Shown in pieces: positions 576-56,709 of a DNA stretch of 64,000 nucleotides. Made by a program: the position numbers and the translations under genes. The stretch's first letter is position 1, and each line of letters opens with the position of its first letter. The notes under the pieces were generated by a model, which saw nothing but the letters and a program-made list of their open reading frames with translations, was not told the DNA's origin and did no database searches. The stretch comes from a virus, in IMG/VR virus record IMGVR_UViG_3300030294_000015, positions 1-64,000 of that record, one strand, 5' to 3'.

Positions 576-704
576 TAAAACATAAGTTATATAAGTTATC
601 TTTTATTGTCTTATACTTAATAACGACCAGATTATATTACATATATTTATTAAATTAAATGAAAAAGGAACTTTTTGTTCCTTTTTATTTTTTACATTTA
701 GCTA

Positions 705-739: not shown

Positions 740-2785
740 ATGGAAGATGAATTATTAAAAGGATATAAAGATGGTTCTAATATATCCTTATTAAATGTAA
801 TATATAATTATCCTAAAAAAGATGAAAATGGTAAATGGGAGAAACATGATAATGCTTCTTTTATTTTTTATGATTTTAATGATAATAAGATGAAGATACA
901 AGAAATAGAAGATGTACCTTATGAATTCTATACTGTAAAAGAAGACAGAGTTCCAGATAAACAACAATTCTTTATGAGTAGAAATGATGTAACTCCAGTA
1001 AGTTGTAAATATAGAGCATTAAATAAAAAAGTTGCTGAATATACAGACCAAGTAGAATTATTTAAGTCTAATATTCAAAATGGTAATGCCAGAGAAAATT
1101 ATAAATTACATTATGATCCTAGAGTCATATCCTCTGATATGCATATAGAAGATAAATTAAGAAATATGTTTGATAGAAGATATATAAATGCACCAATACC
1201 AAAAGTAACTAAAGCATTTTTCGATATAGAATATGATGGTAAAGATTATAAAGGTATAGGGATAGATAGAAATGGTACATGTCCTATAAATGCTATATCA
1301 ATGATAAATGAAGTAGACCAAAGAATATATGTATTCTTATTAAGAAATAAAGATAATCCTCTTATAGAAGAATTTGAAGGATATGCTAATACAAATCAAG
1401 TGCATATAGATTTGAGAGAATTTATAAAAGAAAATGTTGGTGGATGGAAGAATGAAATAAGATATGGACTGGATAAGTATGAATATAAATTTAATTTCTA
1501 TGATGATGAAGTACAATTAATAACTGATTTATTTGTTGTAATGAGTTGGTTCAAACCTAGTTTTATATTAGCATGGAATATGGCATTTGATATTCCTTAC
1601 ATACAAAGAAGATTAGAAAACTTAGGTGTAAATCCACAAGATATAATGTGTAATTCGGATTTCAAACATAAAGTATGTCGTTATTATATAGATGATAAAA
1701 AAGATAAAGATGGTAAAATGAAAAAGATAGAAGGTAGAGGAGATTTTGCCACTATATCTTCTCATTCAGTATTCCTAGATCAAATGATTCAATTTGCATC
1801 TAGAAGAAAAGGACAATCTAACTTTATAAGATATACTTTAGATTATATAGGTGAATCTATATGTAATGTAAGAAAATTAGATTACTCACATATTACAAAT
1901 AAGATTCATGAATTACCATATAAAGATTATAAAACATTTGTTTTCTATAATATTATGGATACAGTAGTTCAATATTGTATTGAGAAGAAAACAGGTGATG
2001 TTGATTATGTATATACGAAGTCATTAATGAATAATGTAAGGTATAGTAAAGTACATAGACAAACTACTTATCAAACAACTCGTATGAGTAAAGAGTTTTA
2101 TAATTATTATGAGGATGGTTTAATTCTAGGAAATAATATAAATGCTTCTAATCAAAAACCTAATGAAAAATATCCAGGAGCTTATGTAGCTGATCCTATG
2201 AAATTAAATGATTATTGTAAACAAAAGATAAATGGACGACCAGTAAATATTATACATAATGGGGTTGACTATGATTATTCAGCACAATATCCAAATGAAG
2301 TTAGAGAAAATAATATGGCTCCACATACACAAATAGCAAAAATAATAATAGAACAAGCTGTATATGCTAATGAAAATCCATTTAAGAATAAATACTATAC
2401 TAGAGGGGGTAATTTCTTAGAAGATTATATGACTAGAAGTATATTAGAATTATGTAGAAAATGGTTTAGTCTAGGGTCTTATGGAGAATTAATAGATGAT
2501 GTAATTAATTATATAAATAATAAGAATCTTATGTATAATCCTACACCATTTATAGGAAATAATATGGTGTTTATGAGGAAGACTAATCCTAATGAATTAA
2601 TACAGTTTATGGTTAGACAACCATTAGGAGAGAAGAGTATATTTATGAGACGGAATAATATACCAGATTATTCTTTAGCAGATAATATAAATGTGGATGA
2701 TTATGTATACAATAATGATAGAAGATATGTTAAACAATCTACATCAGATAAAAATGCACAATTAAAATATGAAGAGGAGGAATAG
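740..2785 (+). CDS. Family-B DNA polymerase, N-terminal part (3'-5' exonuclease plus motif A) of a split polymerase
   Basis: ExoI FFDIEYD, ExoII LAWNMAFDIPY, ExoIII YNIMD, YPGAYVADP and motif A DYDYSAQYPN. Motifs B and C are absent here and occur at 20915-24840. Confidence 0.92.
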   Translation: MEDELLKGYKDGSNISLLNVIYNYPKKDENGKWEKHDNASFIFYDFNDNKMKIQEIEDVPYEFYTVKEDRVPDKQQFFMSRNDVTPVSCKYRALNKKVAEYTDQVELFKSNIQNGNARENYKLHYDPRVISSDMHIEDKLRNMFDRRYINAPIPKVTKAFFDIEYDGKDYKGIGIDRNGTCPINAISMINEVDQRIYVFLLRNKDNPLIEEFEGYANTNQVHIDLREFIKENVGGWKNEIRYGLDKYEYKFNFYDDEVQLITDLFVVMSWFKPSFILAWNMAFDIPYIQRRLENLGVNPQDIMCNSDFKHKVCRYYIDDKKDKDGKMKKIEGRGDFATISSHSVFLDQMIQFASRRKGQSNFIRYTLDYIGESICNVRKLDYSHITNKIHELPYKDYKTFVFYNIMDTVVQYCIEKKTGDVDYVYTKSLMNNVRYSKVHRQTTYQTTRMSKEFYNYYEDGLILGNNINASNQKPNEKYPGAYVADPMKLNDYCKQKINGRPVNIIHNGVDYDYSAQYPNEVRENNMAPHTQIAKIIIEQAVYANENPFKNKYYTRGGNFLEDYMTRSILELCRKWFSLGSYGELIDDVINYINNKNLMYNPTPFIGNNMVFMRKTNPNELIQFMVRQPLGEKSIFMRRNNIPDYSLADNINVDDYVYNNDRRYVKQSTSDKNAQLKYEEEE

Positions 2786-2789
2786 AATA

Positions 2790-3410
2790 ATGAAATTAAT
2801 TGAATTAGAAGAACTAATAAATCAATTTAAGATTATTAAATCAGATTTAGTATATCTTAGAGGGAATAATATATTTGGATTTGATTATTCACATACTATA
2901 GTGAAAGAAACATCATTCTGTAATCCTAATTCATATTTGTTGGTTATTCAGATTAAAGATTGGTTAGATTTGTTTAAACAATTAAAAGAATCAAATACTA
3001 AATATGAAAATAAAGTAATTGATGAAATTCAAGGAGACTATATATCATATAAAGGAAAAAATTATTATTATAAATCATCATTTATAATCAGTGAATTAGA
3101 TAGAAAAATAAGTACTATTCATAATATTATGAATAGTATAAAACCTGTTGAATTTATTGAAGATGTAAAATCAGATACAAACTTTAATACTACTTTAGAT
3201 AAGGAATTTAAAAGTGATTGTGGAGTTTACTTATATAGGGTAAAAGAATATGTAATGACTATTTATAAAACTCTATTAGGAATTACATCAAAAGATAATG
3301 TGTCATTGAATATCTATAATTATTCTGATTTATATTTTTTATCTAAGTATGTATTATATAATAAAAAACAATCTATATCCATATATTTAAATTTAAGAAA
3401 ATTACCATAA
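2790..3410 (+). CDS. Putative sliding clamp (PCNA/gp45-like fold); tentative
   Basis: Directly follows the polymerase gene (GAGGAGG RBS, ATG 2790), ~206 aa. FDYSHTIV resembles PCNA [8 protein letters not shown], and the C-terminal alternating beta-strand pattern resembles the PCNA end. Confidence 0.35.
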   Translation: MKLIELEELINQFKIIKSDLVYLRGNNIFGFDYSHTIVKETSFCNPNSYLLVIQIKDWLDLFKQLKESNTKYENKVIDEIQGDYISYKGKNYYYKSSFIISELDRKISTIHNIMNSIKPVEFIEDVKSDTNFNTTLDKEFKSDCGVYLYRVKEYVMTIYKTLLGITSKDNVSLNIYNYSDLYFLSKYVLYNKKQSISIYLNLRKLP

Positions 3411-3445
3411 AAGGAACGAAAGTTCCTTTATTTTTTACCTCACGA

Positions 3446-3481: not shown

Positions 3482-5728
3482 ATGGAAAATGATAAGAGAA
3501 AAAGTATAAGTTCTAAATTTATACAATCTATAACTGGAAAAGTAAATCAATTAAAACAATCAACATCTTTTTTACCATCTAATATAACAGATGATACATT
3601 ATATATAACACAGAATATAAATTCAGAAATAGATAAATTAATAACTCATAATGAAGATATAGAGGGAGAAGCTAATATAGCCAATCTTTATAATAGAATA
3701 GGAAATACTAGTATAAAAGATAATGGTAAAAATGTATCACTTGATTCTATATTTAATTCAAGACAGTTATCTGAACAAATAATGCCTAATTTTATTCAAA
3801 ATAGACAATTATTAGAATATGAAGAAATGATAGATACAATAGTAAAATATTTTCCTACAATGCAAGATGTACTTGATGTAAAAAAAGATCATGTATTATG
3901 TGCAGATCATTATACAAAAGACTTTATTAATGTATTAGATTTAACCACAAATAAATCTACATCAGATGAAGAAGCTTCTGTATTCCAACAAAATATATCA
4001 TATATAAAAGATAAATATAATTTGATAAATCAATATGATAAATTTTATGATATCACGGCATCATATGGAGAATGTTTTATTTATATAAAAGGATATAATG
4101 ATGCTATAGGTGAATTATTAAAGAATAAGAATAAAAATCCAGCTTATCATACAGAAAGTTTTGTATTAAATGAATGTTTTTCTTCTCAAAATGATAATCC
4201 TATAAAAGTACATAAACCTGACACTGAGTATTCTAATTATCTAAATGATATTTCAAAATTAGAATTTACAATCAATTACAATAAATATGGATATATATCA
4301 TCTGCTGTTTCAGAAGCTCATAATATGAGAGAAATATTAACAGAACAACAGCAAAATATTAATATTGGTTATAAAATGATGGAGAAAAAATTAGTACCAG
4401 ATAAATTAGGATTTGAAGGTATACAAGATGGTTTAATAGACAGAGGGAATATAAAAGAAAATAATAAAGATTATGAGAATCCTAAATTAGATTTAAAAGG
4501 TTGTATAGTGCGTAAACTAAGAAGAGAAAATATAATTCCTTTATATTTTGATGATGATACTGTTGTTGGTTATTTTTATATAGAAAGTGAGATTCAAAAT
4601 GAATTAAGAGACTCTAGTAAAAGTAATGCATCCCCATTTAGAGGAAATATGGCTAATATGTCATCTATATTTAATAATACAAAATCAGAAGAAAGAAAAA
4701 ATATATTGACATATATATCTGATAAATTATCTAAAATGATAGATGAAAAGTTTATTAAAGATAATCAAGATTTAAAGAAAGAAATATATCTTGTATTAAA
4801 AAATACTCAAATATTAGAAAAAGGACAAACACAAGTTAATGCTGTATTTATACAACCACAAGATATTATTCATATGAAGTTTGATGAAGATCCATTAACA
4901 CATAGAGGGGTCTCTGATTTAGATAAATCTATTGTACCTGCTAGTATGTATATAAATCTATATACTACAAATACTATTGGTATATTGACTAGAGGATTTG
5001 ATAAGAGAGTATACTATGTAAAGAATAGAGTAGATACAAACATAGCTAGAACATTACTTAATGTAATGAATCAACTAAAAAGAGGAAATATGGGTACTAG
5101 AGAAATATCTAATCCTAAGACAGCTTTAAATATTACTGGTAGATATAATGATGTATTAATCCCTGTAGGACAATCAGGGGATGCTCCTGTTACAATAGAA
5201 AATATGCCTGGTCAAGATATAGATACTAAACAAGACTTAATGGAATCATTAAAAGAATTAGCTATAGGTCCAACTAATGTACCTTTAGATTATGTGGATC
5301 AATCTAAACAAGTGGATTTTGCTACAAGACTTACTATGTCTAATTATAAATTTTTAAGATCTATATATAAGAGACAATCATTAACAAATCCTTTCTTTAC
5401 AAAAATACTTCAAAAAATATATGATTATGAATTCCCAGATGATACTGTAAAATTAAAGGTAACTTTACCTGCACCAGTATATATAAACACAATGGGAGTT
5501 GCAGAAATATTCAGAGTAGTAAATGATTACTCCCAACAAATAGCAGAGACAGAGTTTGTTAATCAAAGCGATCCATTAATAGAAATAAAGAAAAAGATAT
5601 TTATATCAGAACATAATAAACAAGTTATGGGTTCTCAATTAGATAGAAACCTTATATCTAAAGCAAAAGAATATGCTGATTTACATGCTTCAGAATATTC
5701 AGCTCCTAATGATAATAGTGTAATGTAA
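3482..5728 (+). CDS. Portal protein (T4 gp20-like, jumbo-phage type)
   Basis: YGECFIY, RGFDKRVYYV, IENMPGQ and NVPLDY match gp20-family portal patterns; preceded by a late promoter. Confidence 0.8.
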   Translation: MENDKRKSISSKFIQSITGKVNQLKQSTSFLPSNITDDTLYITQNINSEIDKLITHNEDIEGEANIANLYNRIGNTSIKDNGKNVSLDSIFNSRQLSEQIMPNFIQNRQLLEYEEMIDTIVKYFPTMQDVLDVKKDHVLCADHYTKDFINVLDLTTNKSTSDEEASVFQQNISYIKDKYNLINQYDKFYDITASYGECFIYIKGYNDAIGELLKNKNKNPAYHTESFVLNECFSSQNDNPIKVHKPDTEYSNYLNDISKLEFTINYNKYGYISSAVSEAHNMREILTEQQQNINIGYKMMEKKLVPDKLGFEGIQDGLIDRGNIKENNKDYENPKLDLKGCIVRKLRRENIIPLYFDDDTVVGYFYIESEIQNELRDSSKSNASPFRGNMANMSSIFNNTKSEERKNILTYISDKLSKMIDEKFIKDNQDLKKEIYLVLKNTQILEKGQTQVNAVFIQPQDIIHMKFDEDPLTHRGVSDLDKSIVPASMYINLYTTNTIGILTRGFDKRVYYVKNRVDTNIARTLLNVMNQLKRGNMGTREISNPKTALNITGRYNDVLIPVGQSGDAPVTIENMPGQDIDTKQDLMESLKELAIGPTNVPLDYVDQSKQVDFATRLTMSNYKFLRSIYKRQSLTNPFFTKILQKIYDYEFPDDTVKLKVTLPAPVYINTMGVAEIFRVVNDYSQQIAETEFVNQSDPLIEIKKKIFISEHNKQVMGSQLDRNLISKAKEYADLHASEYSAPNDNSVM

Positions 5729-18557: not shown

Positions 18558-19421
18558 TTAATCTGTTATTTCTACTCTATATCTATATAAAGCAGGATAT
18601 ATTATATCTTTATATTGAGGTATATATTGTCCTCCTTTTTCATAATAGTAATAATCTGCTACTCTTTTAATATATGATTCTTTAGCTTCTTTATAAGCAT
18701 AAAAAGCTTCCTCTGGATTTGAAAAAGTCCCTAAAAATAAATTTTTAGTCTTTGGTATACTAATTCTTAGCTCTGATATATATTTATTGCAACCATTACT
18801 ATAAAAAACACCTATAGGTAAATCACCTCTAACCTTATCACATTTTATAAACAATATATTTATTCTTTGAGGTACAAATATACATGTATCAGGACTATAT
18901 ATTTTATTATTTTTAATTAATATATCTTTATCTAAACTCATCATTTCATTTGGAAATTGATAATAATTCTGATAATACCATTCAATAAAATTTTGGAAAT
19001 TATGAAATCTTTTATCAACAGTTACTTTTATATATGTATTACATAAATTTTTAAAATTTACTGAACAACTTCGGTTTATCATTTGTAGCCAACATCTATA
19101 TATAATAGGTATATCTTTTGGTCTATAACCTTCCCCTAAATATCCTGTATTGCAACATGATAAATCATAAGGAGATTTCATACATCCTTTTAAAAATTTA
19201 TCATAAGATCTATTATATACAATATAATAATTTATCTTTCCATTTTTCATAATATTAATAATACAAACATCTATATCTATACTATTTCTATAATCTACTA
19301 TTATCATTGGAGACCCATAAAAGTTATAATTAATCTCTCCAATTCTTGGGTGGTTATTTTTATTAGGTTTATCTCTTGTCATAAATTTCTTTAATTCTAG
19401 ATCTTCTTTTTCTATAAACAT
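18558..19421 (-). CDS. Free-standing HNH-type homing endonuclease with AP2-like C-terminus
   Basis: WLQMINRS, FHNFQNFIEWY, LDKDIL..YSPDTCIFVP..IN, LPIGV and LGTF..PEEAF.AY. Confidence 0.75.
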   Translation of the reverse strand: MFIEKEDLELKKFMTRDKPNKNNHPRIGEINYNFYGSPMIIVDYRNSIDIDVCIINIMKNGKINYYIVYNRSYDKFLKGCMKSPYDLSCCNTGYLGEGYRPKDIPIIYRCWLQMINRSCSVNFKNLCNTYIKVTVDKRFHNFQNFIEWYYQNYYQFPNEMMSLDKDILIKNNKIYSPDTCIFVPQRINILFIKCDKVRGDLPIGVFYSNGCNKYISELRISIPKTKNLFLGTFSNPEEAFYAYKEAKESYIKRVADYYYYEKGGQYIPQYKDIIYPALYRYRVEITD

Positions 19422-19446
19422 AATATATTCATCCTCTCTTGTAAGT

Positions 19447-20004
19447 TTATATGTCTTTAATAAATAATACAGAAGTACATTTACATTCTTTATAATAGTA
19501 TGGAAAGCATATAGGACATATTATATCTTTACTCCATATATTAGGTAAATCTTTCACTTTATTAAAATCATTATTTAAAAGCAACTTCTCTGAATTTACT
19601 TTTATTCCATTAAATAGATTAGATTGAACAGCAACTGCTATTATAAAATGATAAGAGTTATCTTTAGCAAATTTTACCACTTCATTTAACAAAGCTTGTC
19701 CATATGATTTATGTTGATATTCCTTTTTTATAATAATACCATCAATATAGATTACTTTGTCATTATTAGAAGGAATTATATTTTTTAATTTTTTATATCT
19801 CTGTATTAATTCTATATTACTAGATTCAGAAAATGTAATAAATCCTATATTCTCTTCTTCATTATCAATTAATCTACAATGTATAGAGTTATCATAATAA
19901 CAATCAGTATAATTATCTAATGATGTTTTATAATCAGCAGAAAATTCTTTATTGTCTAATTTAGAAATCCAATTTATATCATCTTTTTTCATATCTCTTA
20001 TCAT
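19447..20004 (-). CDS. GNAT-family acetyltransferase
   Basis: IGFI, YIDGIIIKKEYQHKSYGQALL (acetyl-CoA binding motif A); C-terminal CPIC..CKC. Confidence 0.8.
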   Translation of the reverse strand: MIRDMKKDDINWISKLDNKEFSADYKTSLDNYTDCYYDNSIHCRLIDNEEENIGFITFSESSNIELIQRYKKLKNIIPSNNDKVIYIDGIIIKKEYQHKSYGQALLNEVVKFAKDNSYHFIIAVAVQSNLFNGIKVNSEKLLLNNDFNKVKDLPNIWSKDIICPICFPYYYKECKCTSVLFIKDI

Positions 20005-20064
20005 TTATATTACCCCCTTTTCATAGAAGAAAGATTATAATAATCCTTCTAGAATGAAATTATA

Positions 20065-20901
20065 TTAATCTGTTATTTCTATATCATATCTCAACATTGC
20101 AGGATAAAATACATCTCTAAATTGAGGAATATTCATTCCACCTTTATTATAAAGATAATCATCTGCTACTTCTTTTATATAAGATAGTTTCCTTGCTCTA
20201 TATACATAAAATGCTTCTTCTGAAGTTTTAAATCTTTTCTTAAATTTATTTATTTCAATACAATATTTTTGACTATAATTTTCAAAATAAACTCCTATAG
20301 GTAAATTTCCTCTTAAAGCTTTACGATTGAGAAATAGTAGATTAATTCTTTCTGGTACAAAACAACATGTATCTGGACCATATATTTTATTTCCTTTAAA
20401 TATTATATCCTTATCCACACACATTTTTTCATTTGGAAATTTATAATAATTTAAATTATACCATTTGATAAAATTTTGAAAATTCTCAAACCACGGATGA
20501 AGTTTAACATCTTTATATGATGGACTTTGTATTTTAAATTCTATAGAATTAGTTCTTGTCAACATATGATTCCAAAATCTATATATTTCAGGAACATCTT
20601 TTGGTCTATATCCTTCTCCTATATAACCAATACCACATGTGGCTTTATCATACGGCGATTTAATATCTTTTCCATTTTTAAAATGATTGTACATTCTATT
20701 ACAAATATTATTATATTTTATAGTACCATCTGATAATATATTAATAATACAGACATCTATATCAGCATTATTTCTATAATCAGTTATTATCATTGGAGAA
20801 CCAGAGAATTTATAGTTGACTTCTCCAATTCTTGGATGGTTATTTTTATTTGGTTCATCTCTTGTCATAAATTTCTTTAACTTTGGGTTTTCATTTTCCA
20901 T
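20065..20901 (-). CDS. Free-standing HNH-type homing endonuclease (paralog of 18558-19421)
   Basis: FENFQNFIKWY, VDKDII..YGPDTCCFVP; N-terminus nearly identical to its paralog. Confidence 0.75.
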   Translation of the reverse strand: MENENPKLKKFMTRDEPNKNNHPRIGEVNYKFSGSPMIITDYRNNADIDVCIINILSDGTIKYNNICNRMYNHFKNGKDIKSPYDKATCGIGYIGEGYRPKDVPEIYRFWNHMLTRTNSIEFKIQSPSYKDVKLHPWFENFQNFIKWYNLNYYKFPNEKMCVDKDIIFKGNKIYGPDTCCFVPERINLLFLNRKALRGNLPIGVYFENYSQKYCIEINKFKKRFKTSEEAFYVYRARKLSYIKEVADDYLYNKGGMNIPQFRDVFYPAMLRYDIEITD

Positions 20902-20914
20902 ATTATTTTCCTTT

Positions 20915-22656
20915 CTAAAATGAAATTATATTTGTGTAGTTGTTATGAGAATTACCTTGGTATATATCTAATGGAGCTAAAGGAAATAATGATAAAGAAC
21001 TATTAATGATTTTATTATAATCTATAAATATAGTCAAAAATTCAGGCATTGCAATATTTGTTGGAATACAAACTGACGTTATACTTCCTTTGTACATTTT
21101 ATCGGGTAATAATTCTTTTATTTTTATATATTTTTCCATAAAATAATCAGCTTTATTTTTAAAACTCAAATCATTCTTTTCTTTTGATTCTAAATATAAT
21201 TTATCAGCAGTTCTTTTTAATTTCTCTATGGTTTTTACGTTTATCAATACATCTACTAATTCTAAAGCATTACTTCCTTCCAGATCGAATCCATCCATAT
21301 TATCATCTTTAATTTTATTCCATGTATACATACCTTTAACTCCAGAAATCCTTAATGGGTCGTCATAATTTGCCAAAGCTTTTACTTTTCTAGGTTTGTA
21401 AAAATCTTTTTTACCAACTCTAAGGTTTTCATATATTTCTTTTTCAAATATTGCTAAATCTTTTAATAATTTAATTTGGTCAAATTCTGAAACATTTAAT
21501 ACATCTTCATACATTATTTGTTTTAATCTCTTTTGTGTGTATTTATTCGTAATACTTTTGGTAAGTGCCATTCCTTTATAATCCGTAAATCCATCTTTTA
21601 TCAAATTTCCTTCTTGTATTTCTTGTATAGAAGCATAATTCTTCTTTACATTTGTAAGAAGTATTGTCTTAAATAAGAATTCGTTTTTCATATTAATAAG
21701 ACATTCTTTACCCTCAGCCCATGAATGTGTATTCTTAGTATATCTTTCCATATAGTCATTTACAAAATGTGTAAGACAATAACTCATAATATTTACTATA
21801 GAATATCTTACACCTTCTTGTGGAATGATCTTTAAAGGATTAATCATCTTTTTCATTTGAATAACTTCATCATCATAGAAAGAATAATCTAAGTCATCTT
21901 CCATTCTTTCCATAAATTTAATTGGTTGCTTTAAATCATTAAACTCATCTGTTTCTAATCTTTCCATTAAATCTATAGGGGTGTGCTTTATCTTTAAATC
22001 TATTCCTTCTATTTTATTTAATACATAACGATAGAATGGATCTAAACTCAAAATATCGCTATCCGTGTCTGTGAGAGCTACAACTGAACGAATCATATTA
22101 TTATATTTATCTATTCTATTAAATATTTGATGATTATAATAGATATATTCATGTAATAATGTTTCAAAATATCCTAATTCTTCTTCAACTTCATGAGGAC
22201 ATTCATTTGGGTCCATAAATGGTTTATCTAATTTTTTAAGTACTTTAATCATAGATTCATTTACATGATTATTTTCTAAGAATTCATATAAATTATTTTT
22301 ATAGTATATTCTATTTACATTATCTGGTGATAATCCACATATTATATTATAAATTATATCCATATCTTTTTTATCGGGAATATAATTAAATCCACATGTA
22401 GAAATTATTTTAGCGAAACAATCATCTACAGATACATTACAATCTAATATATTATTATCATTAAATATTCTATCTGGAATTTCTTTTATTATATTATGTA
22501 TAAATTCTACTATTTCATTTAAACATTCAAATTTTGCATTATTAGCTAAGAATGATTCAAAGAATAATCCTGCTGAAGATATACATGATCTTGCTTGAGT
22601 TGTGATAGATGGAGCTACATGTAAATTGTATAGAATACAACTATATTGCCCTAAAC
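20915..22656 (-). CDS. Family-B DNA polymerase C-terminal subunit, exon 2
   Basis: Frame is open from 22656 (LGQYSCILYNLHVAPSITTQAR..) into the listed ORF; motif C LTDTDS, KNEF, KKNYA and YKG. Confidence 0.9.
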
Positions 22657-24398
22657 CGCTACATTCAATAAGTTTGTTAAACTTATCAGTTTTATTATAA
22701 ACTTCCCTACTGTTAAGTAGGTGGCTAGACTATATCATTTACCTATACAACTTTATTTCTAATCTTATATAGGCAACCTACCACTTCGATTTAAGGAGGC
22801 ATTATATCATTATTACTGAAAACCTCCACCTCAATAACTTAGGCTCTACTCTACTTGCTTTGTATTATTAAAGGTATTTAATTGTTTTTCTTTATATCCT
22901 TTTACTATTTTCTTGAAACTATTTCCTCTACATATTTCTCTTATAGCTTCATTTAAATTTTTATTTTTAAAGTCCAAATTCAATATATCCATTATTTCTT
23001 TTGTATTTTTTCTTTCAATGAAATGTAATTCACAAATTTGTTTAACAATGTCATTATCGAAATACTTAGATTTATCATTTAATTCTGGAAAATTGTAATC
23101 TTTAACAACATTCTTCCATTTAGATTTTCTAAGAATATGTGTAACTCTATCCCTAACTACTCTATCATTATAATCTAATTCCAATTCATTCATTATTTCT
23201 TTACATGATTTTGATTGCATTCTGAGTTCACATATATCTCTTACTATTTTTTCTGTGAATTTTTGCCCATATTTCAAATTTTCATATGGAGGAAAAATAT
23301 AATCTTTAGATATCTCTATCCATGTTTCTCTATTTATTATATGATTTACTCTTCCTTTAGTCGATTCATAATCCCAACCAAGTCTTTCACATATTTCTTT
23401 TGGAGTTAACATGTTTGTTCTCATTTCACAAATTTGTATTACTATATCTTCATCTATTTTTTGTGAATATTTTTCACTTTCTAATGGTGGCATATCATAA
23501 TTACATGTAATATAATTATATATTTCTCCTAATATAATTCTTCTTACTCGCATTCTTTCAGTTTCACTATATTCTAATCCTAATTCTTTTATTATTTCAT
23601 GTATTTGTAAACCTTGTTCTCTTAATTTACATATTGCATTTACTTGAACTTCTGTATATGCTTTATCATTATTTAAAATATTTTCATGTTGCATATTTAA
23701 AGCTCTAGTAGTCCATTCTAAATTAAATAAATAATTATCTAATTTATCCCCATATATATGATTAACATGTAAATCATTCATATTTAAGCAAGGTCTAAAA
23801 GTCATCATAATCAATCTATGTACCAATACATAATAAGATTGGTTATTAATACGTAATACTACTCTATAATAACCACTATTTATAATAGTAGAAATAATAA
23901 ATTGATTTCTTAAATTAGAATATACTCTTCCATGAGTACTTACACTATATTCATTATAATATAAACCATTAATATTCACATATGACCATTTTTCTGGATA
24001 TATTGGGCTTTGATATATTCTTGGATCTGTATAAAATGTAGGTGTATAATCTTCATCCATTCTATACATAAATTTTCTTAATATAAAAATCATACCTTTC
24101 AATTTATATTTACCTTTTAATAATACCTTATTTTTAACTAGACATATCTCTATGTAAACTAGTATATAGCTTTCGATAGTCGTTGAACATTAATTTCTTA
24201 ATGCTGCTGATTACTCCTTGTTAATAACACTTAGCACCTATATAATAGGCTTTTATTTCAGCATATGTCAGGTTCATACATTATTTCTACTTTCGTTACC
24301 ATTTCTTATTAATTATGGTTTATGAACTTTTGTGAGCTTCCCAGCAATTCAATAGGTTATTCATTTTTATGTTACCATAAAAAGGGGCAGGAAAGTTT
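22657..24398 (-). mobile_element. Group I intron (1742 nt) in the DNA polymerase gene, carrying an HNH endonuclease
   Basis: Core elements AATTGCTGGGAAG, AATCAGCAGC, GTTCAACGACTATCG and GATATAGTCTAG; P1 GGGU/GCCC with U-G pair; terminal G; splicing restores NSLYG-C-LGQY. Confidence 0.92.
22846..24102 (-). CDS. Intron-encoded HNH homing endonuclease (NUMOD4-like + HNH + 4 helical repeats)
   Basis: YSVSTHGRVYS, VHRLIMMTF, VNHIYGDKLDN..NLEWTT..N. Confidence 0.88.
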   Translation of the reverse strand: MKGMIFILRKFMYRMDEDYTPTFYTDPRIYQSPIYPEKWSYVNINGLYYNEYSVSTHGRVYSNLRNQFIISTIINSGYYRVVLRINNQSYYVLVHRLIMMTFRPCLNMNDLHVNHIYGDKLDNYLFNLEWTTRALNMQHENILNNDKAYTEVQVNAICKLREQGLQIHEIIKELGLEYSETERMRVRRIILGEIYNYITCNYDMPPLESEKYSQKIDEDIVIQICEMRTNMLTPKEICERLGWDYESTKGRVNHIINRETWIEISKDYIFPPYENLKYGQKFTEKIVRDICELRMQSKSCKEIMNELELDYNDRVVRDRVTHILRKSKWKNVVKDYNFPELNDKSKYFDNDIVKQICELHFIERKNTKEIMDILNLDFKNKNLNEAIREICRGNSFKKIVKGYKEKQLNTFNNTKQVE

Positions 24399-27842: not shown

Positions 27843-29954
27843 ATGAAAAGTGAATTTGTAGATGATATTGTACAAGATTTAAACGAGACCGTTCTGTATT
27901 ATGAGAACTATGGACCTTTTGCTGATTTTGCAAAAAATAAACAAATGATATTAGATGTAGGTGGATTAAACATTAATAATTATGAGTCTTATTATTATGG
28001 TATTCTAAATTTAATGCTAGATACTATAGAAACGGATTATACTACAGACCATATGATTACATTGAGATTTGATGGAGATAAGACTTGTCAAATGTCAATT
28101 CCTGATGTATGGATGAATCTAATAATGTGGTATATAATAGTTAAAACCAATAGAAAGATAATACCTAAATACATATTCTTTGAGACATGTGTCACAAAGG
28201 GAAATATAAAAAGATACATAGACAATTATCTAATAGAAGAATATATTACTTCTATTGATATTATTGATTTAAATAATATCATTGATGATTGTCTTCATAA
28301 ATTGTTAGATATTAATGAATTTAGTATGTTCCTAGCTAATACTATCAATCTAGAAGATTTCATTATATTAATGAATGAGAATGAAAGATTCAATGAATTA
28401 ATCCATGCTAATATACCTAAAGAAACTCCATTAGATAGGGTAAAAGAAATTGGTATGGATTTAACTATGGAAATGATAGAAATAATGAAGAAATCTAAAC
28501 ATGGATTGGCTGCTTTCTTCAATGCACAAGAAGGAATTAATATTAAACAATTTAGAGAGTTTGGTGTCAATATTGGTACTAAACCAGATGGTGATGGTGG
28601 AATTTTCCCTACTATAGTAAATACCAATTTCTTAATAGGTGGGGTAAATGATTTACTATCATATCACATAGAATCACATTCTGGTAGATTAGCACAGATA
28701 ATAGTTGAAGATAATGTATCCGACTCAGGATATTTTGCTAGACTATTAGGAATAAATAATGTAGATTCTTTCATACATCAAGATCCACATTACGATTGTG
28801 GAACTAGAAATTTCGTACCTGTTTTTATTAAAGACGCTTCTACATTGAAGCGTTATAATTTTAGATATTATAGACTGACTGAAAATGGTATGGAATATTT
28901 ATTGAAAGAATCTGATAATCATTTAGTAAATAAAACAATATTATTACGTTCTCCTATGACATGTAAATCTCATGCAGAAGGGAATGGAATCTGTTATAAA
29001 TGTTATGGTCATCTAGCATTTATAGTAAGGCTTATTAACGCAGGGAAAATTGCAGCTGAGTTATTATCATCTGTATTAACTCAAAAGATGTTATCAGCAA
29101 AGCATCTTCTTGAAGCTGCTGTACAATCTTTAACTTGGAGTCCTGAATTTGTAGATTATTTTGTTCTAGACTATAATAATATAAAATGTAGACCTGATAT
29201 GGATTTTAAAGGATATAAAATTATTATAGCAGCAACAGATATAATGGCAACTTCAGAAGACGATGGAGGTGATATGAACGAATATATAAATAGTTTCATA
29301 TTAGAAACACCAAATGGAGAAAGAATTAAAATATATACTGCTGAAATTAATAATCTATACCTAACTGTAGAAACTAATAATATAATCAGAGAATTTGGTA
29401 TGAATAATGGGGATGAAGATATAGCTTTTGATATTTCTTTATTATCAGGAAAACCAATATTCTCTGTAGATATTGTTAATAATGATTTGAATGACACATT
29501 GAATAAGATTAGATATACAATCAATAATAAGAAACATATTGAAGATGATGTATCTAATTTAGGATATTGGTTACAAGAATTAATGGATAGACTGGAAGAA
29601 GGTCATATGTCATTAGCTTCCATTCATGCAGAGGTAATATTATCAAATCAAATTAGAAGTGTTGATAGCATTTTAGATAAACCAGATTGGAGTGTTCCAC
29701 ATCAAGGTTATAACATGTTAGCACTTAAAACGTCTTTAAGCAAACATCCTTCAATAAGTGTTACATTAGCATTTGAAGGTATTAAAGCAGCGTTATATAA
29801 CCCATTGACATTTAAGAAGAATAAACCTAGCTTCTTAGACTTGTTCTTTGTAGTAAAACCTCAGGAATATTTATCCGATGATAGTAAAGTTATTAAGACT
29901 TCTATAGGTGATAAAGATTCTACAGGTAAAACAATATTTATGAAGAGAGAATAA
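27843..29954 (+). CDS. RNA polymerase beta'-like C-terminal subunit (probably non-virion RNAP)
   Basis: Bridge helix VSDSGYFARLL, DCGT, Zn motif RSPMTC..ICYKCYG, trigger loop TQKMLSAKH and HAEVIL; early promoter. Confidence 0.9.
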   Translation: MKSEFVDDIVQDLNETVLYYENYGPFADFAKNKQMILDVGGLNINNYESYYYGILNLMLDTIETDYTTDHMITLRFDGDKTCQMSIPDVWMNLIMWYIIVKTNRKIIPKYIFFETCVTKGNIKRYIDNYLIEEYITSIDIIDLNNIIDDCLHKLLDINEFSMFLANTINLEDFIILMNENERFNELIHANIPKETPLDRVKEIGMDLTMEMIEIMKKSKHGLAAFFNAQEGINIKQFREFGVNIGTKPDGDGGIFPTIVNTNFLIGGVNDLLSYHIESHSGRLAQIIVEDNVSDSGYFARLLGINNVDSFIHQDPHYDCGTRNFVPVFIKDASTLKRYNFRYYRLTENGMEYLLKESDNHLVNKTILLRSPMTCKSHAEGNGICYKCYGHLAFIVRLINAGKIAAELLSSVLTQKMLSAKHLLEAAVQSLTWSPEFVDYFVLDYNNIKCRPDMDFKGYKIIIAATDIMATSEDDGGDMNEYINSFILETPNGERIKIYTAEINNLYLTVETNNIIREFGMNNGDEDIAFDISLLSGKPIFSVDIVNNDLNDTLNKIRYTINNKKHIEDDVSNLGYWLQELMDRLEEGHMSLASIHAEVILSNQIRSVDSILDKPDWSVPHQGYNMLALKTSLSKHPSISVTLAFEGIKAALYNPLTFKKNKPSFLDLFFVVKPQEYLSDDSKVIKTSIGDKDSTGKTIFMKRE

Positions 29955-33954: not shown

Positions 33955-35571
33955 GTGATATTATTGATAAAAATTATAGTAGACCATACAAAGATTATTA
34001 TAAATGATTATGATTTAGGAGATTGTGAACCTTTAGAATATTTTTTTAGTATATATAATCCCATTACACATATAAGGTTTCCATTTGGTCTTCATTATAT
34101 AGAAGAAAGGAGACAACTAATTATTCCTAGAGGTGTAGATATTTCTTATATAAGAAATTTATTTAAATCAGTTCCACAATTAAATAGAAAACATGACCCT
34201 ATGGACAAAATAGAACCAATCGGACTAACCAATCCACCTAGAGATAATACGCAAAGAACAGCATTACGATTTATGTTAGGAAAAGATGAATTTTATTATA
34301 CTTCTTCTAAATCTATGCTCAGTCTTAATTTATTACCAGGAAAAGGTAAGACTTATTGTGCTATTGCAACCACAGCTTTTATTAGATATAGAAGTATCAT
34401 GCTTACTTCTTCTTTAAAATGGATTAATCAATGGAAAGATGCTATATTAGAACATAGTGATATAAAACCTAAAGAGATATTTATCATCTCTGGAACTCCA
34501 TCTATTCATATGCTATTAAATAGAGGTGTTAATAATTACAAATTTATATTAGCTTCTATTGATACTATCATATCTTATGGTGAAAAATATGGATTTGATA
34601 AAGTATCAGAATTATTTATTAAATTAAGAGTAGGAATAAAATATGTAGATGAAGCTCATTTAGATTTTAAAGCTATAATGATGATAGATTTTTATACAAA
34701 TACATATAAATCTTATTATATGACTGGTACTCCTATTAGATCAAATGAAGATGAAGATAAGATATATAAAATGTATTTTAAGAATGTACCTTCTATAAAT
34801 CTATTTGATGAAAATAAAGATCCACATACAGATTATTTAGCATTAAGATATAATTCACATCCTAATCCACAAGATATATCTTATTGTAGAAATAAATATG
34901 GATTAGATAGAAATAAATATACTGGGAGTTATATTATAAGACGTCCTAATTTTTATAATATACTTAGAGTTATATTACATAAAACTCTTGCTAAAAAAGG
35001 AAAGATATTAATATATATTGGAGTTAATAAATCTATAGATAAAGTAAAAGAATGGATTGAATTATACTATCCATTTTTAAAAGGTCATATAGGAGTTTAT
35101 AATAGTGTAAATAAGGAAGATAAAAGTGAACAATTAAAAAAGAAATACATTTTATCTACTACTAAGTCATGTGGTGCTGCTATGGATATAAAAGGGTTAG
35201 CATGTTCAGTTATACTCGCTGAACCATTCAAATCGGAACCTCTAGCAATACAAACTTTAGGTAGAACAAGAGATGACAATACTATGTGTATAGAGGCTGT
35301 GGACGAAGGATTTAAAGCTATTATGAAATTCTATTACTATAAACAACCAATAATGAAGAGGTATGCTAAATCAATAGATGAAGAAAGATATAATGATTAT
35401 AGTCTAGAAAAACAAGTAGAAGAAATATTTGATATGTATTATGGTGATGGTGATTTTCCAGAAATATATCTAGAGAATAATTTAAGATTATTTATGATGA
35501 GACAAGAATGTAGACCTTTAAACGAATATGATTCTAAAGGAAGAAAAATAATTATGAGAAGGGATGGATAA
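33955..35571 (+). CDS. SF2 DNA helicase (DEAH, UvsW-like)
   Basis: PGKGKT, YVDEAH, MTGTP, GAAMDI and QTLGRTR. Confidence 0.9.
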   Translation: MILLIKIIVDHTKIIINDYDLGDCEPLEYFFSIYNPITHIRFPFGLHYIEERRQLIIPRGVDISYIRNLFKSVPQLNRKHDPMDKIEPIGLTNPPRDNTQRTALRFMLGKDEFYYTSSKSMLSLNLLPGKGKTYCAIATTAFIRYRSIMLTSSLKWINQWKDAILEHSDIKPKEIFIISGTPSIHMLLNRGVNNYKFILASIDTIISYGEKYGFDKVSELFIKLRVGIKYVDEAHLDFKAIMMIDFYTNTYKSYYMTGTPIRSNEDEDKIYKMYFKNVPSINLFDENKDPHTDYLALRYNSHPNPQDISYCRNKYGLDRNKYTGSYIIRRPNFYNILRVILHKTLAKKGKILIYIGVNKSIDKVKEWIELYYPFLKGHIGVYNSVNKEDKSEQLKKKYILSTTKSCGAAMDIKGLACSVILAEPFKSEPLAIQTLGRTRDDNTMCIEAVDEGFKAIMKFYYYKQPIMKRYAKSIDEERYNDYSLEKQVEEIFDMYYGDGDFPEIYLENNLRLFMMRQECRPLNEYDSKGRKIIMRRDG

Positions 35572-46874: not shown

Positions 46875-46956
46875 ATTAATAGATAATGTATATTATAAAT
46901 ATGATAGATAACAGAATTTCTGTTATCTATATTTTAAAATTATGGAGGTATATAAT

Positions 46957-47870
46957 ATGAAAAACTTTATGACAAGAGGTGAAATTGTAGATCAGAATTA
47001 TTTAAGAGAGTTACAAGAAAAAATAGATTTTGAATCTACCTTGCCAGAAAAGAAAATATTTATGACGAGAAGCCAGATTCCAGAAAAAACACATCCATTA
47101 ATTGGATTTAACACAATTACAAATTTTGGTACATATATGGAGGTGATTAAGTATAATAATTGTTTTGATATGGATGTTATCATGATAAATTTATTAAGTA
47201 ATGGAGATATAAAATATACAACAAAAAATATAAGAACTTCATATATTAAAAAAGGAAATATAATGTCTCTATATGATAAATCATGTTATAATACTGGGTA
47301 TATCGGAGAAGGTCATTATTCTTTTAAAAGTAATGAAAATATGCATAAAAGTTGGGTTCATATAATGGAAAGAGGATATGACTCTAAATTAAAAGAAAAA
47401 TACAATACATATAAAAATGTAACTGTAGATCCTTATTTTCATAATTTACAAAATTTTGGAAAATGGTATGATGAAAATTATTATGAATTTGAGGGAGAAA
47501 CTATGTGTTTAGACAAAGATATATTAATTAAAGGTAATAAAATATACAGTCCTAATACATGTTGTTTTGTTCCACAATACATAAATGTATTGTTTACTAA
47601 ATGTGATAAAACACGTGGTGATTTACCATTGGGAGTTACACAAAAATATAAAAAATATTATTCACATATTAGTATAAAAAATGAGAATCAAAAAATAGGT
47701 GGTTTTGATATACCAGAAGAAGCTTTTTATGCTTATAAAGAAGCTAAAGAAACTGAAATTAAAAGAATAGCTGATTATTATCTTTATGAAAAGGAGGAAT
47801 CTATATACCACAATATAGAGATATAGTTTATCCTGCGATGCTTAGATATAAAGTAGAAATAACAGATTAG
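46957..47870 (+). CDS. Free-standing HNH-type endonuclease, third paralog, with a C-terminal frameshift near 47790
   Basis: FHNLQNFGKWY and LDKDIL..YSPNTCCFVP; the paralog C-terminus GGIYIPQYRDIVYPAMLRYKVEITD lies in another frame. Confidence 0.75.
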
Positions 47871-52172: not shown

Positions 52173-53114
52173 ATGAAAAAATTTATGACAAGGGACGAAA
52201 ACAAAAAAATCATCAGTGTTTCAGATTGGCAGGCAGAACCACAAGATTTATTAATTATGCAAATAAATGATTATATAATCGCACCTGTTTCAAAATATTT
52301 CAATGCGGATCAAAGTATGGATTATTTTTCAGTAAGATCTAAAAAAGCATATAATAGACCTGAACTTAGAGCACTAATAGTACATAAATTGAATTACTTT
52401 GAAAAGTTCTATGATACTGATAAAGAGTTGTTAGCTGTATATGCTAATATAAAGTATCTTATAGATTGTGAGCCTAACTATACTAAAGAATCATTATTCT
52501 ATGATCTAAAGAAGTACATAATTCATGGACCATCCTTATCATTAAAAATGGACTATATGAATAAGGATAATTATAGACCAGCAAAAATTAAATTTAATGG
52601 AAGCGATAGGTTATTATACTATGATAATAGTCATATATATATAATGATGAGAATATCATTAACTATGACAGCTATTATTCCATTACTAACTCATTTTGCC
52701 AATAAGAAAAAAGTACAATTGATAGAACCCTTTCTATTAGAAATTTATTCTTACATTATTAGATCATATAGTGATTTTGTAGATTTATATTCTAAATATA
52801 CAGGAACTTGTGCTACTATTATATCTAAGAATAAAAGATATAATAGTATATGGAATAATCAGGATATAAGATCTATAAATGAAACTACTCAAACAATAGC
52901 ATCTGTAAATAATATCATAGTAAACATTATGCCAAAATATATATATAATGACTCCGCAGTCACTTTGAACTTCGCATCTGTAGGTAATGTTATTAAGTAT
53001 AAAATAACTGATGCTGGGTATGATTTTGCTTATTCTTCTCTCAGTTCATCAGATAGGGATTTTGAAGAGATAAGCTCATTTGATAAGTATGAGGCATTGC
53101 TAAGTAAGTGTGAT
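52173..53114 (+). CDS. Exon 1 of a ~501-aa protein, probably the sigma-like promoter-specificity subunit of the non-virion RNAP
   Basis: Early promoter; size and position two genes after the chaperonin recall AR9 gp226/gp228 (synteny from memory). Splice after ..LLSKCD. Confidence 0.55.
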
Positions 53115-54705
53115 CGGTTTGGTCACTTCTCTATAGTAATATAGAGTCGAATAACTCTCTATAAATTGCTGGGAAGCTCACAAAAGTTCATAAACCATAA
53201 TAGAAATAAAAATGGTAACGAAAGCAGAAACAATATATGAACCTGACATATGCTGAAATAAAAGCCTATTATATAGGTGCTAAGTGTTATTGACAAGGAG
53301 TAATCAGCAGCAAATTAATATTATCATCTTAAAAAATACGAATAAGAAGGGAAAGATATTTATACAATTAAAATCATTTATGACACGAGATATACCTAAT
53401 CCTAATCATACATTTCTAAAGAAAAACGGTTTACAACAATTCATGATAAGAGAACCATTTTTATTTGAAGAATGGGTACAAATATGTACATTCTTACCAG
53501 AAGTGAAAGAATATTATTGGATAAGTAATCATGGTAAAGTATTAAATAATAAATCCATACCATTTGTACATATGAATATTAACTTGGATAACCGTGGATA
53601 TGAACAAATTTCATTGTCTACAAATAATGGAGGTAAAACTTTTAAAGTACATAGATTAGTAGGAATAGCATTTAATTATATAGATAATTATGAAGAATTG
53701 ACAGTGAATCATTTAGATGCAAACAAACGTGATAACTATTCATATAATTTACAATGGGCTACTAATTATGAAAATATGAGACATGCATGTGAACATGGTT
53801 TGTTTCCTGTTGGTGAAGATTCCTTTTTAAGTATATTATCTAATAATGATGTAGAAAATATATGTAAATATCTTCAAGAAGGATTACCATTTGAAACTAT
53901 TATAGAAAATGTTCCAAACATGAATAATCTTAGATACCCAATATCTTCAATATGGTCTATTTATAGTAGATGGGCATGGAAACATATTTCTAAAAAATAT
54001 GAGTTTAGTATCTATAAAGGTAATAGATTTAAATTTAATAATAATGAAATTATTAAAATATGTGAATATTTGGAACAAAATCTAGATTATAAAGAAATAA
54101 TAAAAGGATTAGGATATGATATAACTAATATGTCTAAAGAAACTTTAAAGGAATATAATCATTCTATTAGTACTATAAGATTAAAACAAACCTATACTGA
54201 AATATCTAAAGATTACAATTTTCATACTGAAAGAAGTTATCAAAAATTTAATACAGATGAAATACATGAAATTTGTTTTTATTTACAAAGCGGTTTAGAT
54301 TATGAAAAAATACTAAAAAGAATGAATGTTGTTCCTAATAATGAAACAGAACTGTATAATTATAAATGTGTAATATCAAGAATAAAAAGCAGAAGATGTT
54401 TTCAAAATATATCAAACAATTATGAATTTTAAGATGATAATTAATTTGTTCAACGACTATCGAAAGCTATATACTAAGACGATATTCTTAGTTGAAAATA
54501 AGGTATTAGAGATAATACACGAAGCAAGTAGAGTAGAGCCAAGTGGTAAGGTTTCTCGTAATAAGAGATATAATACCTTTTAAATCGAAACAAGAGAGCT
54601 GCCTATATATTCGTTATAGGTAGATGATATAGTCTACTATCTTACTTAACAGTAAGGAAGTTTATAATAAAACTGTACTATCTAACGAATAGTATGAATA
54701 CTAGG
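53115..54705 (+). mobile_element. Group I intron (1591 nt) carrying an HNH endonuclease
   Basis: AATTGCTGGGAAG, AATCAGCAGC, GTTCAACGACTATCG and GATATAGTCTA; P1 GUGAU/GUCAC with U-G pair; P10 GGUUU/AAGCC; in-frame join KCD|EAL. Confidence 0.88.
53284..54432 (+). CDS. Intron-encoded HNH homing endonuclease (true start probably near 53360-53380)
   Basis: YWISNHGKV, VHRLVGIAF, VNHLDANKRDN..NLQWAT..EN..H and three helical repeats. Confidence 0.88.
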   Translation: MLLTRSNQQQINIIILKNTNKKGKIFIQLKSFMTRDIPNPNHTFLKKNGLQQFMIREPFLFEEWVQICTFLPEVKEYYWISNHGKVLNNKSIPFVHMNINLDNRGYEQISLSTNNGGKTFKVHRLVGIAFNYIDNYEELTVNHLDANKRDNYSYNLQWATNYENMRHACEHGLFPVGEDSFLSILSNNDVENICKYLQEGLPFETIIENVPNMNNLRYPISSIWSIYSRWAWKHISKKYEFSIYKGNRFKFNNNEIIKICEYLEQNLDYKEIIKGLGYDITNMSKETLKEYNHSISTIRLKQTYTEISKDYNFHTERSYQKFNTDEIHEICFYLQSGLDYEKILKRMNVVPNNETELYNYKCVISRIKSRRCFQNISNNYEF

Positions 54706-56364: not shown

Positions 56365-56709
56365 ATGATATACATAATAAATGATGAAGAACAAGAAAAA
56401 GTTAAGAAAGCTTTAGCTGATAATTCTATTGAATTTAAAAACTTTGATACTCCGTTAGATGCTTTTGTATATGAAGAATCTATATATAGAACAAATGAAT
56501 ATGAAAAAGAAAATAATGTTAAATTTACTGAAGAATGTAGAGATACAATGGAAGGAACAATAGAAGGATTTTTGTCTACAAATAATTTTTTAGATAATGA
56601 TCACTTATGTGATTTAGTTGAAGAAGCTATTGATAATGCAATGGATTATTGTAAAAAAGAAAATCTAAAAGTATTTATGACTAGAGAAGAAGAAACAAAG
56701 GAGGATTAA
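56365..56709 (+). CDS. Small acidic hypothetical protein with a C-terminal FMTR motif
   Basis: AGAAGGA RBS; E/D-rich. Confidence 0.6.
   Translation: MIYIINDEEQEKVKKALADNSIEFKNFDTPLDAFVYEESIYRTNEYEKENNVKFTEECRDTMEGTIEGFLSTNNFLDNDHLCDLVEEAIDNAMDYCKKENLKVFMTREEETKED

Follow-up and report, generated by a model that had tools for sequence, protein, structure and literature searches.

The giant phages of the phiKZ/AR9 supergroup belong to a phage group that was described in a 2021 survey as being without a classical sliding clamp, and an insert in the polymerase was suggested to compensate (PMC7824862). It was not until October 2026 that the split polymerase of PhiKZ was shown to be served by a clamp-derived domain, one that is fused to RNase H. 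In that preprint (PMC13648687), DNAP-N and DNAP-C were found to make up a 1:1 polymerase, and the fusion protein Rhc, which is without ring-forming elements, was found to bind as a single subunit to the thumb, the palm, the palm insertion and the product duplex and to stimulate synthesis strongly. The palm insertion touching Rhc is built from the C-terminus of DNAP-N and the N-terminus of DNAP-C (PMC13648687). The Rhc of phage Goslar pulls down both DNAP halves and three subunits of nvRNAP, the non-virion RNA polymerase, and is required for a subset of late genes (10.64898/2026.10.01.755736). AR9 and PBS1 are not mentioned in the main text of either preprint. Here, a 206 amino acid (aa) protein encoded by an open reading frame (ORF) in 64,000 nucleotides (nt) of the IMG/VR virus record IMGVR_UViG_3300030294_000015 (the whole of this stretch is referred to as the window) was examined, and was found to have a predicted sliding clamp fold and to be encoded directly downstream of Pol-N, one half of a split family-B DNA polymerase. 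The protein is probably a clamp-fold accessory factor of that polymerase.

The window is part of a 94 kb contig (G000; completeness 39% according to CheckV) and has a G+C content of ~25%. Its source is a giant phage whose relatives include the uracil-DNA phages AR9/PBS1, BpSp, phiR1-37 and the Staphylococcus jumbo phages. A relative, IMG/VR UViG_3300029984_000001 (G001; 263,571 bp, rated 100% complete), encodes a copy of the clamp protein that is 59% identical.

The ORF (P0001; coordinates 2790..3410, + strand) was read directly from the sequence and runs from an ATG at 2790 to a TAA at 3408-3410. An earlier reading of the window, made without database searches (the sequence-only reading), had given these coordinates and a length of ~206 aa, had placed the start right after the Pol-N stop codon, and had quoted peptides for a likeness to PCNA. 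The coordinates and length were reproduced, the ATG begins at the fifth base after the Pol-N stop codon (TAG, 2783-2785), leaving 4 nt between the two, and all of the quoted peptides were located in the translation (INQFKIIKSDLVYLRG... at residues 10-41, KTLLGITSKDNVSLNIY at residues 160-176, as well as FLSKYVL and SISIYL). A Shine-Dalgarno (SD) sequence, GAGGAGG (2774..2780, + strand), is present within the 3' end of Pol-N at a distance of 9 nt upstream of the ATG, and its position together with the 4 nt spacing indicates translational coupling of the ORF to Pol-N. An alternative in-frame start at ATG 2769, which would give a protein of 213 aa, was ruled out because both of the closest homologues have a length of exactly 206 aa and begin at the methionine that corresponds to the one encoded at 2790. 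A terminator scan detected 3 terminator-like sites where 0.3 were expected in shuffled sequences. One is a hairpin upstream of Pol-N (662..686, + strand) and another is an intrinsic-terminator-like hairpin with a T-run that begins at the last base of the ORF stop codon (3410..3429, + strand). As these sites flank Pol-N and the ORF, they mark the left boundary and the right end of a two-gene unit.

Searches of Pfam, PHROGs and the PDB (phmmer) with the protein gave no credible match, and tblastn against 50,697 phage records gave none. An indexed search recovered 2 homologues only, and an exhaustive profile search of 1.84 billion representatives identified 85 proteins at E <= 1e-3, nearly all of them 170-230 aa in length and matching end to end. 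A search for longer fused forms found none, which is weak evidence. The family alignment comprises 83 sequences with a mean column identity of 21%, and its best-conserved block, GLLP[IV]NKxDKVxLxIYD...FLxxFxIxKKK, is in the C-terminal half. Neither the protein nor the 83 family members gave a consistent match to the Pfam and PHROG clamp families (gp45, PCNA, DnaN). The ORF defines a separate family of stand-alone clamp-fold proteins, with at least 85 sequence clusters, that is missed by every profile library. The fold is known, whereas the family within it is new, lacks annotation and has diverged very far, and a stand-alone clamp has not previously been described in this phage group.

The fold was predicted with AlphaFold2 using the 83-sequence alignment, which was required, as a model built from 3 sequences had a predicted local distance difference test score (pLDDT) of 35. 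With the full alignment the pLDDT was 93.4 and the predicted template modelling (TM) score was 0.88, and all five models had a pLDDT of >92. Two helix-plus-sheet domains were found (residues 1-95 and 96-206), with four helices in total, fewer strands than in PCNA and no long interdomain connector, and on this model the ORF product is a minimal clamp. The order of its N-terminal elements (helix 3-16 and strands 20-24, 27-31 and 37-42) agrees with the register of one helix and three strands that had been assigned by eye in the sequence-only reading.

When the model was compared with the PDB using Foldseek, the matches were almost exclusively clamps and the top ones were clamps only (Borrelia DnaN, 4e-4; T4 gp45, 6e-4; RB69 gp45; PCNAs; and 9-1-1), at low TM scores of 0.3-0.46. 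A structural ranking over 48,161 chains placed clamps in all of the top 36 positions, and the best matches were ring clamps, T4 gp45 first, with the alignment running end to end over both domains. An independent ESM Atlas model was assigned to 'sliding clamp', gp45-slide_C and DnaN clusters with TM scores of 0.56-0.64. The root mean square deviation (rmsd) to solved clamps is ~5 A, indicating that the domain geometry differs from theirs. The PCNA likeness claimed in the sequence-only reading therefore holds for the fold, since the fold searches return PCNA, gp45 and DnaN clamps and not an unrelated fold. It does not hold at the level of sequence, where there was no Pfam, PHROG or PDB match and probabilities from hhalign did not exceed 5%. 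A PCNA/gp45-like two-domain clamp fold for this polymerase-coupled protein is strongly supported by the models.

The gp45 proteins of T4 and RB69 (PDB 1czd, 6drt, 1b77 and 3u61) share the two-domain fold, at 228 aa compared with 206 aa, and T4 gp45 is likewise a phage-encoded partner of a family-B polymerase. However, there is no sequence similarity between T4 gp45 and the protein, and the structural agreement is limited (TM ~0.4, with the rmsd given above). The nearest precedent is Rhc (PhiKZ gp155 and its Goslar counterpart), which is similar in having a clamp-derived fold that works with a split DNAP-N and DNAP-C and which belongs to a related group of giant phages that also has no clamp loader. 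In the BFVD, ~500-aa proteins annotated as 'ribonuclease H' in the phiKZ-like phages Noxifer, Wellington and RP12 matched the model with a TMq of 0.47-0.57, whereas T4-type clamps had a TMq of 0.32. These Rhc-type proteins fit the RNase H-clamp fusion described for Rhc, and their clamp domain is still missed in public annotations. Unlike Rhc, the ORF product is a stand-alone protein in which all 206 aa form the clamp fold and no RNase H domain is present (RNase H is encoded in G001 by a separate 246-aa gene), the ORF directly follows Pol-N, and there is no detectable similarity to PhiKZ gp155. The BFVD also contains a 255-aa entry that matches the model (E 1.9e-4) and, judging from length alone, is probably BpSp gp205; a 247-aa entry is, again from length alone, probably phiR1-37 g175.

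The genetic context of the ORF was found to be conserved. Pol-N (740..2785, + strand; 681 aa; phrog_3011 DNA polymerase, 1e-45) is the exonuclease and partial palm half of the polymerase, and shares 28% identity with AR9 g132 over 85% of its length. The gene downstream of the ORF encodes a portal protein (3482..5728, + strand; phrog_3004), which is syntenic with AR9 g128, the BpSp gp204 portal and related loci, and is followed by genes for a 259-aa protein and the tail sheath. A metagenome scan with a sub-alignment and a scan of viral contigs yielded 13 loci, 7 of which included enough flanking sequence for synteny to be assessed. A Pol-N homologue (43-75% identical) was directly upstream of the clamp gene in 7 of these 7 loci, and a portal homologue was downstream wherever the sequence extends that far. 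The order Pol-N, clamp, portal is kept although the clamp proteins share only ~30-59% identity. This synteny, conserved across relatives of ~30% identity, was established here, as were the gene itself, its coupling to Pol-N and the clamp fold.

In AR9 the order is g132, g131, g130, g129, g128 (portal), g127 and g126 (sheath), and in BpSp it is gp207/206, gp205 and gp204 (portal). The 'hypothetical' AR9 g129 and BpSp gp205 are therefore found in the same slot, with the Pol-N region on one side and the portal gene on the other, as is PBS1 gp16, and the three proteins are of similar size (238-255 aa). They differ from the protein in being acidic (isoelectric point (pI) 4.9-5.5), and in AR9 extra genes, including that for the DnaQ-like exonuclease g131, separate Pol-N from g129. 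AR9 g129 is a positional and probably a structural counterpart of the clamp protein, with homology unproven. As a 'hypothetical' gene is found in the same slot in AR9, PBS1 and BpSp, the idea of a polymerase-coupled clamp also covers a second branch, one that does not form a nucleus and in which there are tractable model phages. AR9 g131 (DnaQ-like/RNase H-fold exonuclease; L001:6706-7299) is close to g129 (L001:7657-8373) and both follow Pol-N, a layout that could correspond, in unfused form, to the RNase H-clamp fusion of chimalliviruses.

It is proposed that the ORF encodes a very diverged, minimal 206-aa member of the sliding clamp fold superfamily which, with its gene co-transcribed and translationally coupled with Pol-N, would act as a processivity or accessory factor of the polymerase, holding Pol-N and Pol-C on the duplex product, and would do so without a dedicated loader. 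Processivity is the most likely function that we infer for the protein. The missing processivity factor of the phiKZ/AR9 supergroup thereby gains a concrete candidate. Several comparisons weigh against this interpretation. An hmmsearch of the PDB with the family profile was empty, leaving no sequence link to a named clamp, and hhalign of the family profile gave probabilities of 0.25% with T4 gp45, 0.25% with PhiKZ gp155 and <=5% with AR9 g129. A profile search across the whole AR9, BpSp, phiR1-37 and phiKZ genomes was also empty. Comparison of the profile with a 3-sequence AR9 g129 family revealed a weak co-linear match in the C-terminal part (E 0.0077, probability 5%), and an attempt to enlarge the g129 family gained a single sequence.

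As the portal gene is always next downstream, the clamp fold could instead serve a non-replicative role, either as a 9-1-1-like scaffold in repair or recombination or as an accessory to head assembly and packaging. However, a terminator separates the clamp and portal genes and translational coupling is to Pol-N, the phage group is otherwise without a processivity factor (PMC7824862), and the main text of the BpSp proteomics study does not list gp205 with the proteins of the virion, though this last point is weak as annotated structural proteins, the portal protein gp204 among them, were also undetected. A non-replicative role is accordingly very improbable.

The sequence-only reading had also proposed a search for clamp-loader genes elsewhere in the genome. 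None were found: the searches with T4 gp44 and phrog_168 of G001 and the window contig detected only three tandem classic AAA ATPases, PF13177 (DNA_pol3_delta2) and PF08542 (Rep_fac_C) detected nothing in the same sequences, and no recognisable loader was therefore found by sequence-based detection in contig G000 or in the complete 263-kb G001. The three ATPase genes (G001:C1:35225-38171; L009, L010 and L011) encode paralogous proteins of 323, 340 and 390 aa (phrog_7485). The C-terminal half of these proteins contains the AAA domain, which is of the classic clade, and among solved structures they are closest to Cdc48/VCP/AFG2/BCS1. They were rejected as a clamp loader as they are of the classic clade, nearest to Cdc48/VCP/BCS1, and without a collar; they might form a hetero-hexameric unfoldase.

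The state of assembly was considered in this light. A polymerase-tethered monomer or open assembly that is independent of a loader, as is the case for PhiKZ Rhc or herpesvirus UL42/UL44, has by analogy about an even chance of being correct, a closed trimeric ring of the gp45 type is unlikely, and some other or unspecified form of assembly is less likely still. The non-ring model is favoured over the trimer because the complete relative is without a recognisable loader and because the split polymerase of the sister group uses a monomeric clamp-derived subunit. T4 differs in that the gp44/62-type loader was not found in G001. No known ring clamp is as short as the protein, which also has fewer strands. 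It has a pI of 8.6, close relatives have values of 7.7-9.3 and the clamp part of PhiKZ Rhc, also basic, has a pI of 8.85, compared with 4.9 for T4 gp45.

Three points count against the non-ring model. The evidence that a loader is absent comes from G001, searched at the level of sequence, G000 being only 39% complete. The pI is mixed across the family (median 6.8, and 4.9 for AR9 g129), such that the argument from charge is valid for this clade only. Ring clamps also outscore monomeric UL42 and dimeric UL44 in the structural comparison. UL42 (a monomer) and UL44 (a C-shaped dimer) further differ from the protein in being larger proteins of eukaryotic viruses, to which the polymerase binds by its extreme C-terminus. 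The family offers a natural test of whether clamp-derived subunits act as rings or as monomers.

A second feature of this phage is a short peptide motif, FMxR, that the sequence-only reading had noted on the polymerase, a helicase, the nvRNAP and a 'sigma-like' subunit. Copies were counted in non-overlapping ORFs, with the expectation taken from within-protein shuffles (500 rounds for G000). Contig G000 contains 16 copies of FM.R in 12 proteins, compared with 1.08 expected and a maximum of 6 in any shuffle, and G001 contains 39 copies in 30 proteins, compared with 3.1 expected and a maximum of 9. No other gapped tripeptide of the form XY.Z is as enriched as FM.R in either sequence, and with flanking residues the motif widens to the consensus [ML]-K-x-F-M-x-R-[DE]. 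Of the 39 copies in G001, 31 are in the first 30 or last 60 residues of the protein, zones that hold 32% of all residues. The presence of the motif on the polymerase, helicase and nvRNAP was thus borne out. The label 'sigma-like', given to a 323-aa protein, was not confirmed, as no PHROG, Pfam or AR9 match was found for it.

Other origins for the motif were considered. A DNA-level element was rejected, as 16 of 21 occurrences of the DNA pattern in G000 and 39 of 60 in G001 are in the coding frame and the T and R codons vary synonymously. The possibility that the M of N-terminal copies is the true start was rejected because SD positions favour the upstream ATG, making the motif residues 4-7, and because a copy at the C-terminus cannot be a start. 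That the motif is ancient in the group was likewise rejected, since it is absent from AR9 and from the Pol-N tails of distant relatives.

The motif is carried mostly by terminal tails, many of them on recognisable proteins. Pol-N has three FM-x-basic motifs (FMRK, FMVR and FMRR) 12 codons apart in its C-terminal tail (2570..2653, + strand, read from the sequence), at residues 611, 623 and 635 in both G000 and G001, and the conserved polymerase match stops at about residue 587, before this tail. Pol-C, the catalytic palm, fingers and thumb half of the polymerase (20915..22363, - strand; PF20286 divDNApol, 7e-24; phrog_2927; matching AR9 g152), has FMER at residue 150 in an N-terminal extension. 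The tail of Pol-N and the N-terminal extension of Pol-C are the regions that match the palm insertion contacted by Rhc in PhiKZ. In the C-terminal subunit of nvRNAP beta' (27843..29954, + strand; phrog_3015; best AR9 match g154, annotated as a nvRNAP subunit) the protein ends in ...TIFMKRE, and an SF2 helicase (33955..35571, + strand; phrog_16, PF04851; matching AR9 g156) has FMMR in its C-terminal tail at residue 513 of 538. A DnaB-like helicase carries FMxR 5 residues from its C-terminal end, an N-terminal extension of NAD ligase contains two of its three copies, and the motif is also carried by the orthologue of the AR9 nvRNAP protein g089, whose tail has three copies, and by those of g105 and g154 (in the last few residues). 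FMxR copies fall outside the conserved domain matches, and the carriers exceed their AR9 orthologues in length by 30-130 aa each.

HNH endonucleases with FMxR in an N-terminal tail number at least 8 across G000 and G001. Five HNH homing endonucleases of PHROG families 953 and 59 encoded in the window have an N-terminal motif (e.g. ...KKFMTRD.PNKNNHPRIG). The FMxR-bearing HNH genes are at 18558-24102 (- strand), 46942-47826 (+ strand) and 53284-54432 (+ strand), and two of them flank Pol-C, which has HNH endonuclease genes on both sides. That selfish endonucleases carry a docking tag common to replication proteins is unusual. An internal FMVR is found in a 135-aa protein that is weakly similar to AR9 g093 (PC4-family DNA-binding protein), and it is kept in both genomes (G000:C1:80196-80603, beyond the window, and G001:C1:242668-243075). 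The 323-aa protein (52173-53144, + strand) begins with MKKFMTRD, and a 114-aa protein (56365-56709, + strand) ends in ...KVFMTREEETKED; like the former, the latter has no PHROG, Pfam or AR9 match.

FMxR resembles known clamp-binding motifs in several respects. Like LDFLF of T4, the PIP box, the bacterial QL[SD]LF and APIM, it is short, with an aromatic and hydrophobic core followed by a basic residue. The tails that bear it, often in tandem, are disordered and are at the N- or C-terminus of polymerase, ligase and helicases. The T4 ligase, gp43 and gp33 use the common LDFLF motif for the gp45 pocket (PMC6212786), and FMxR clients might share one short motif in the same way. APIM peptides (RWLVK and RFSLK; basic-aromatic-x-x-basic) bind PCNA and the beta clamp (PMC7261172), and K-F-M-T-R fits this pattern. 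However, the sequence of FMxR differs from all of these motifs, and it is also found on homing endonucleases and RNA polymerase (RNAP) core subunits, which are not classical clamp clients.

By analogy with these systems, the clamp protein is the leading candidate for the receptor of this lineage-specific motif, at a probability well short of even. Where the motif occurs, the best-conserved block of the clamp is altered, with LLGIT[SA]KD in place of LLP[IV]NKxDK, a correlation that represents one evolutionary event in a single lineage. Against the clamp as receptor, AR9 has 3 copies of FM.R, about the level expected by chance, neither the Pol-N tails nor the neighbouring genes of distant clamp-bearing relatives contain the motif, and the set of ~30 client proteins is broad. 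The Pol-N tails of those distant relatives (L040:5395-7440, L041:5310-7376 and L033:3592-5508) have two to four repeats of VQFY, VQMY, VRFY, VQIY, IDFY or IEFI. A repeated tail motif may be a general feature of which FMxR is the version of one lineage.

The model that follows from the sequence-only reading is that of a closed trimeric gp45/PCNA ring that slides on DNA and acts as a toolbelt, with a hydrophobic pocket that takes the FMxR of polymerase, ligase, helicases and nvRNAP, and with late transcription coupled to replication in the manner of T4 gp33/gp55. This accords with T4 gp45 being the first structural match over both domains, with a motif that is real at the peptide level and biased to the termini, with tags borne on tails that lengthen the clients relative to their AR9 orthologues, and with clients that correspond to the classic clamp interactome together with RNAP (the orthologues of AR9 g089, g105 and g154). 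Three motifs in the tail of Pol-N, at 12-residue spacing, and three in the tail of RNAP beta would suit a trimer, the neutral median pI of the family and the acidic AR9 g129 are compatible with a ring, and the LDFLF and APIM precedents and the nvRNAP pull-down and late-gene requirement of Goslar Rhc point in the same direction. However, no clamp loader was found in G001, the protein is smaller than known ring clamps, FMxR is absent from distant clamp-bearing relatives and at chance level in AR9, and ~30 clients, many of them HNH homing endonucleases and small proteins, are a broad set for a phage clamp. The trimeric toolbelt is thus doubtful.

The motif may instead be read by something other than the clamp, the clamp then being a polymerase subunit only. 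FMxR could be a signal for targeting to or retention in a replication-transcription compartment, a tag for a single-stranded DNA-binding protein or another DNA-bound hub, or a degron for the Cdc48-like AAA ATPases, and this alternative comes close to an even chance. The clients are numerous and mixed (G001 has 30, many of them without an assigned function, and HNH endonucleases number at least 8 over the two genomes), the motif is specific to one lineage whereas the clamp family is much wider, and G001 encodes the three tandem classic AAA ATPases. However, all annotated clients act on DNA or make RNA, client-borne common peptides are a hallmark of clamps, and the clamp block is altered in the FMxR clade, this last being a single-lineage correlation. 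No gene for a compartment shell or import turned up, and none was searched for.

A more tentative proposal, in which the clamp is again the receptor but no loader is needed, is that the diverged clamp binds the peptide K-x-F-M-x-R-[DE] on the appended tails of ~30 proteins, forming a toolbelt that would couple replication to late transcription by the phage-encoded RNAP and a hub that selfish endonucleases would use to reach replicating DNA. Its possible clients, with the same low probability, would be both polymerase halves, the DnaB-like and SF2 helicases, NAD ligase, three nvRNAP core subunits, the PC4-like protein and many homing endonucleases. With the FMxR tail motif in hand, recruitment of a phage-encoded multisubunit RNAP via the replication clamp becomes a directly testable hypothesis.

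The next most enriched gapped tripeptides in G001 (L018-L031) were YC.G (30 copies compared with 2.7 expected), WT.G (20 compared with 1.4) and CI.G (32 compared with 4.9), which are probably signatures of a domain family present in multiple copies, the HNH endonucleases for example.

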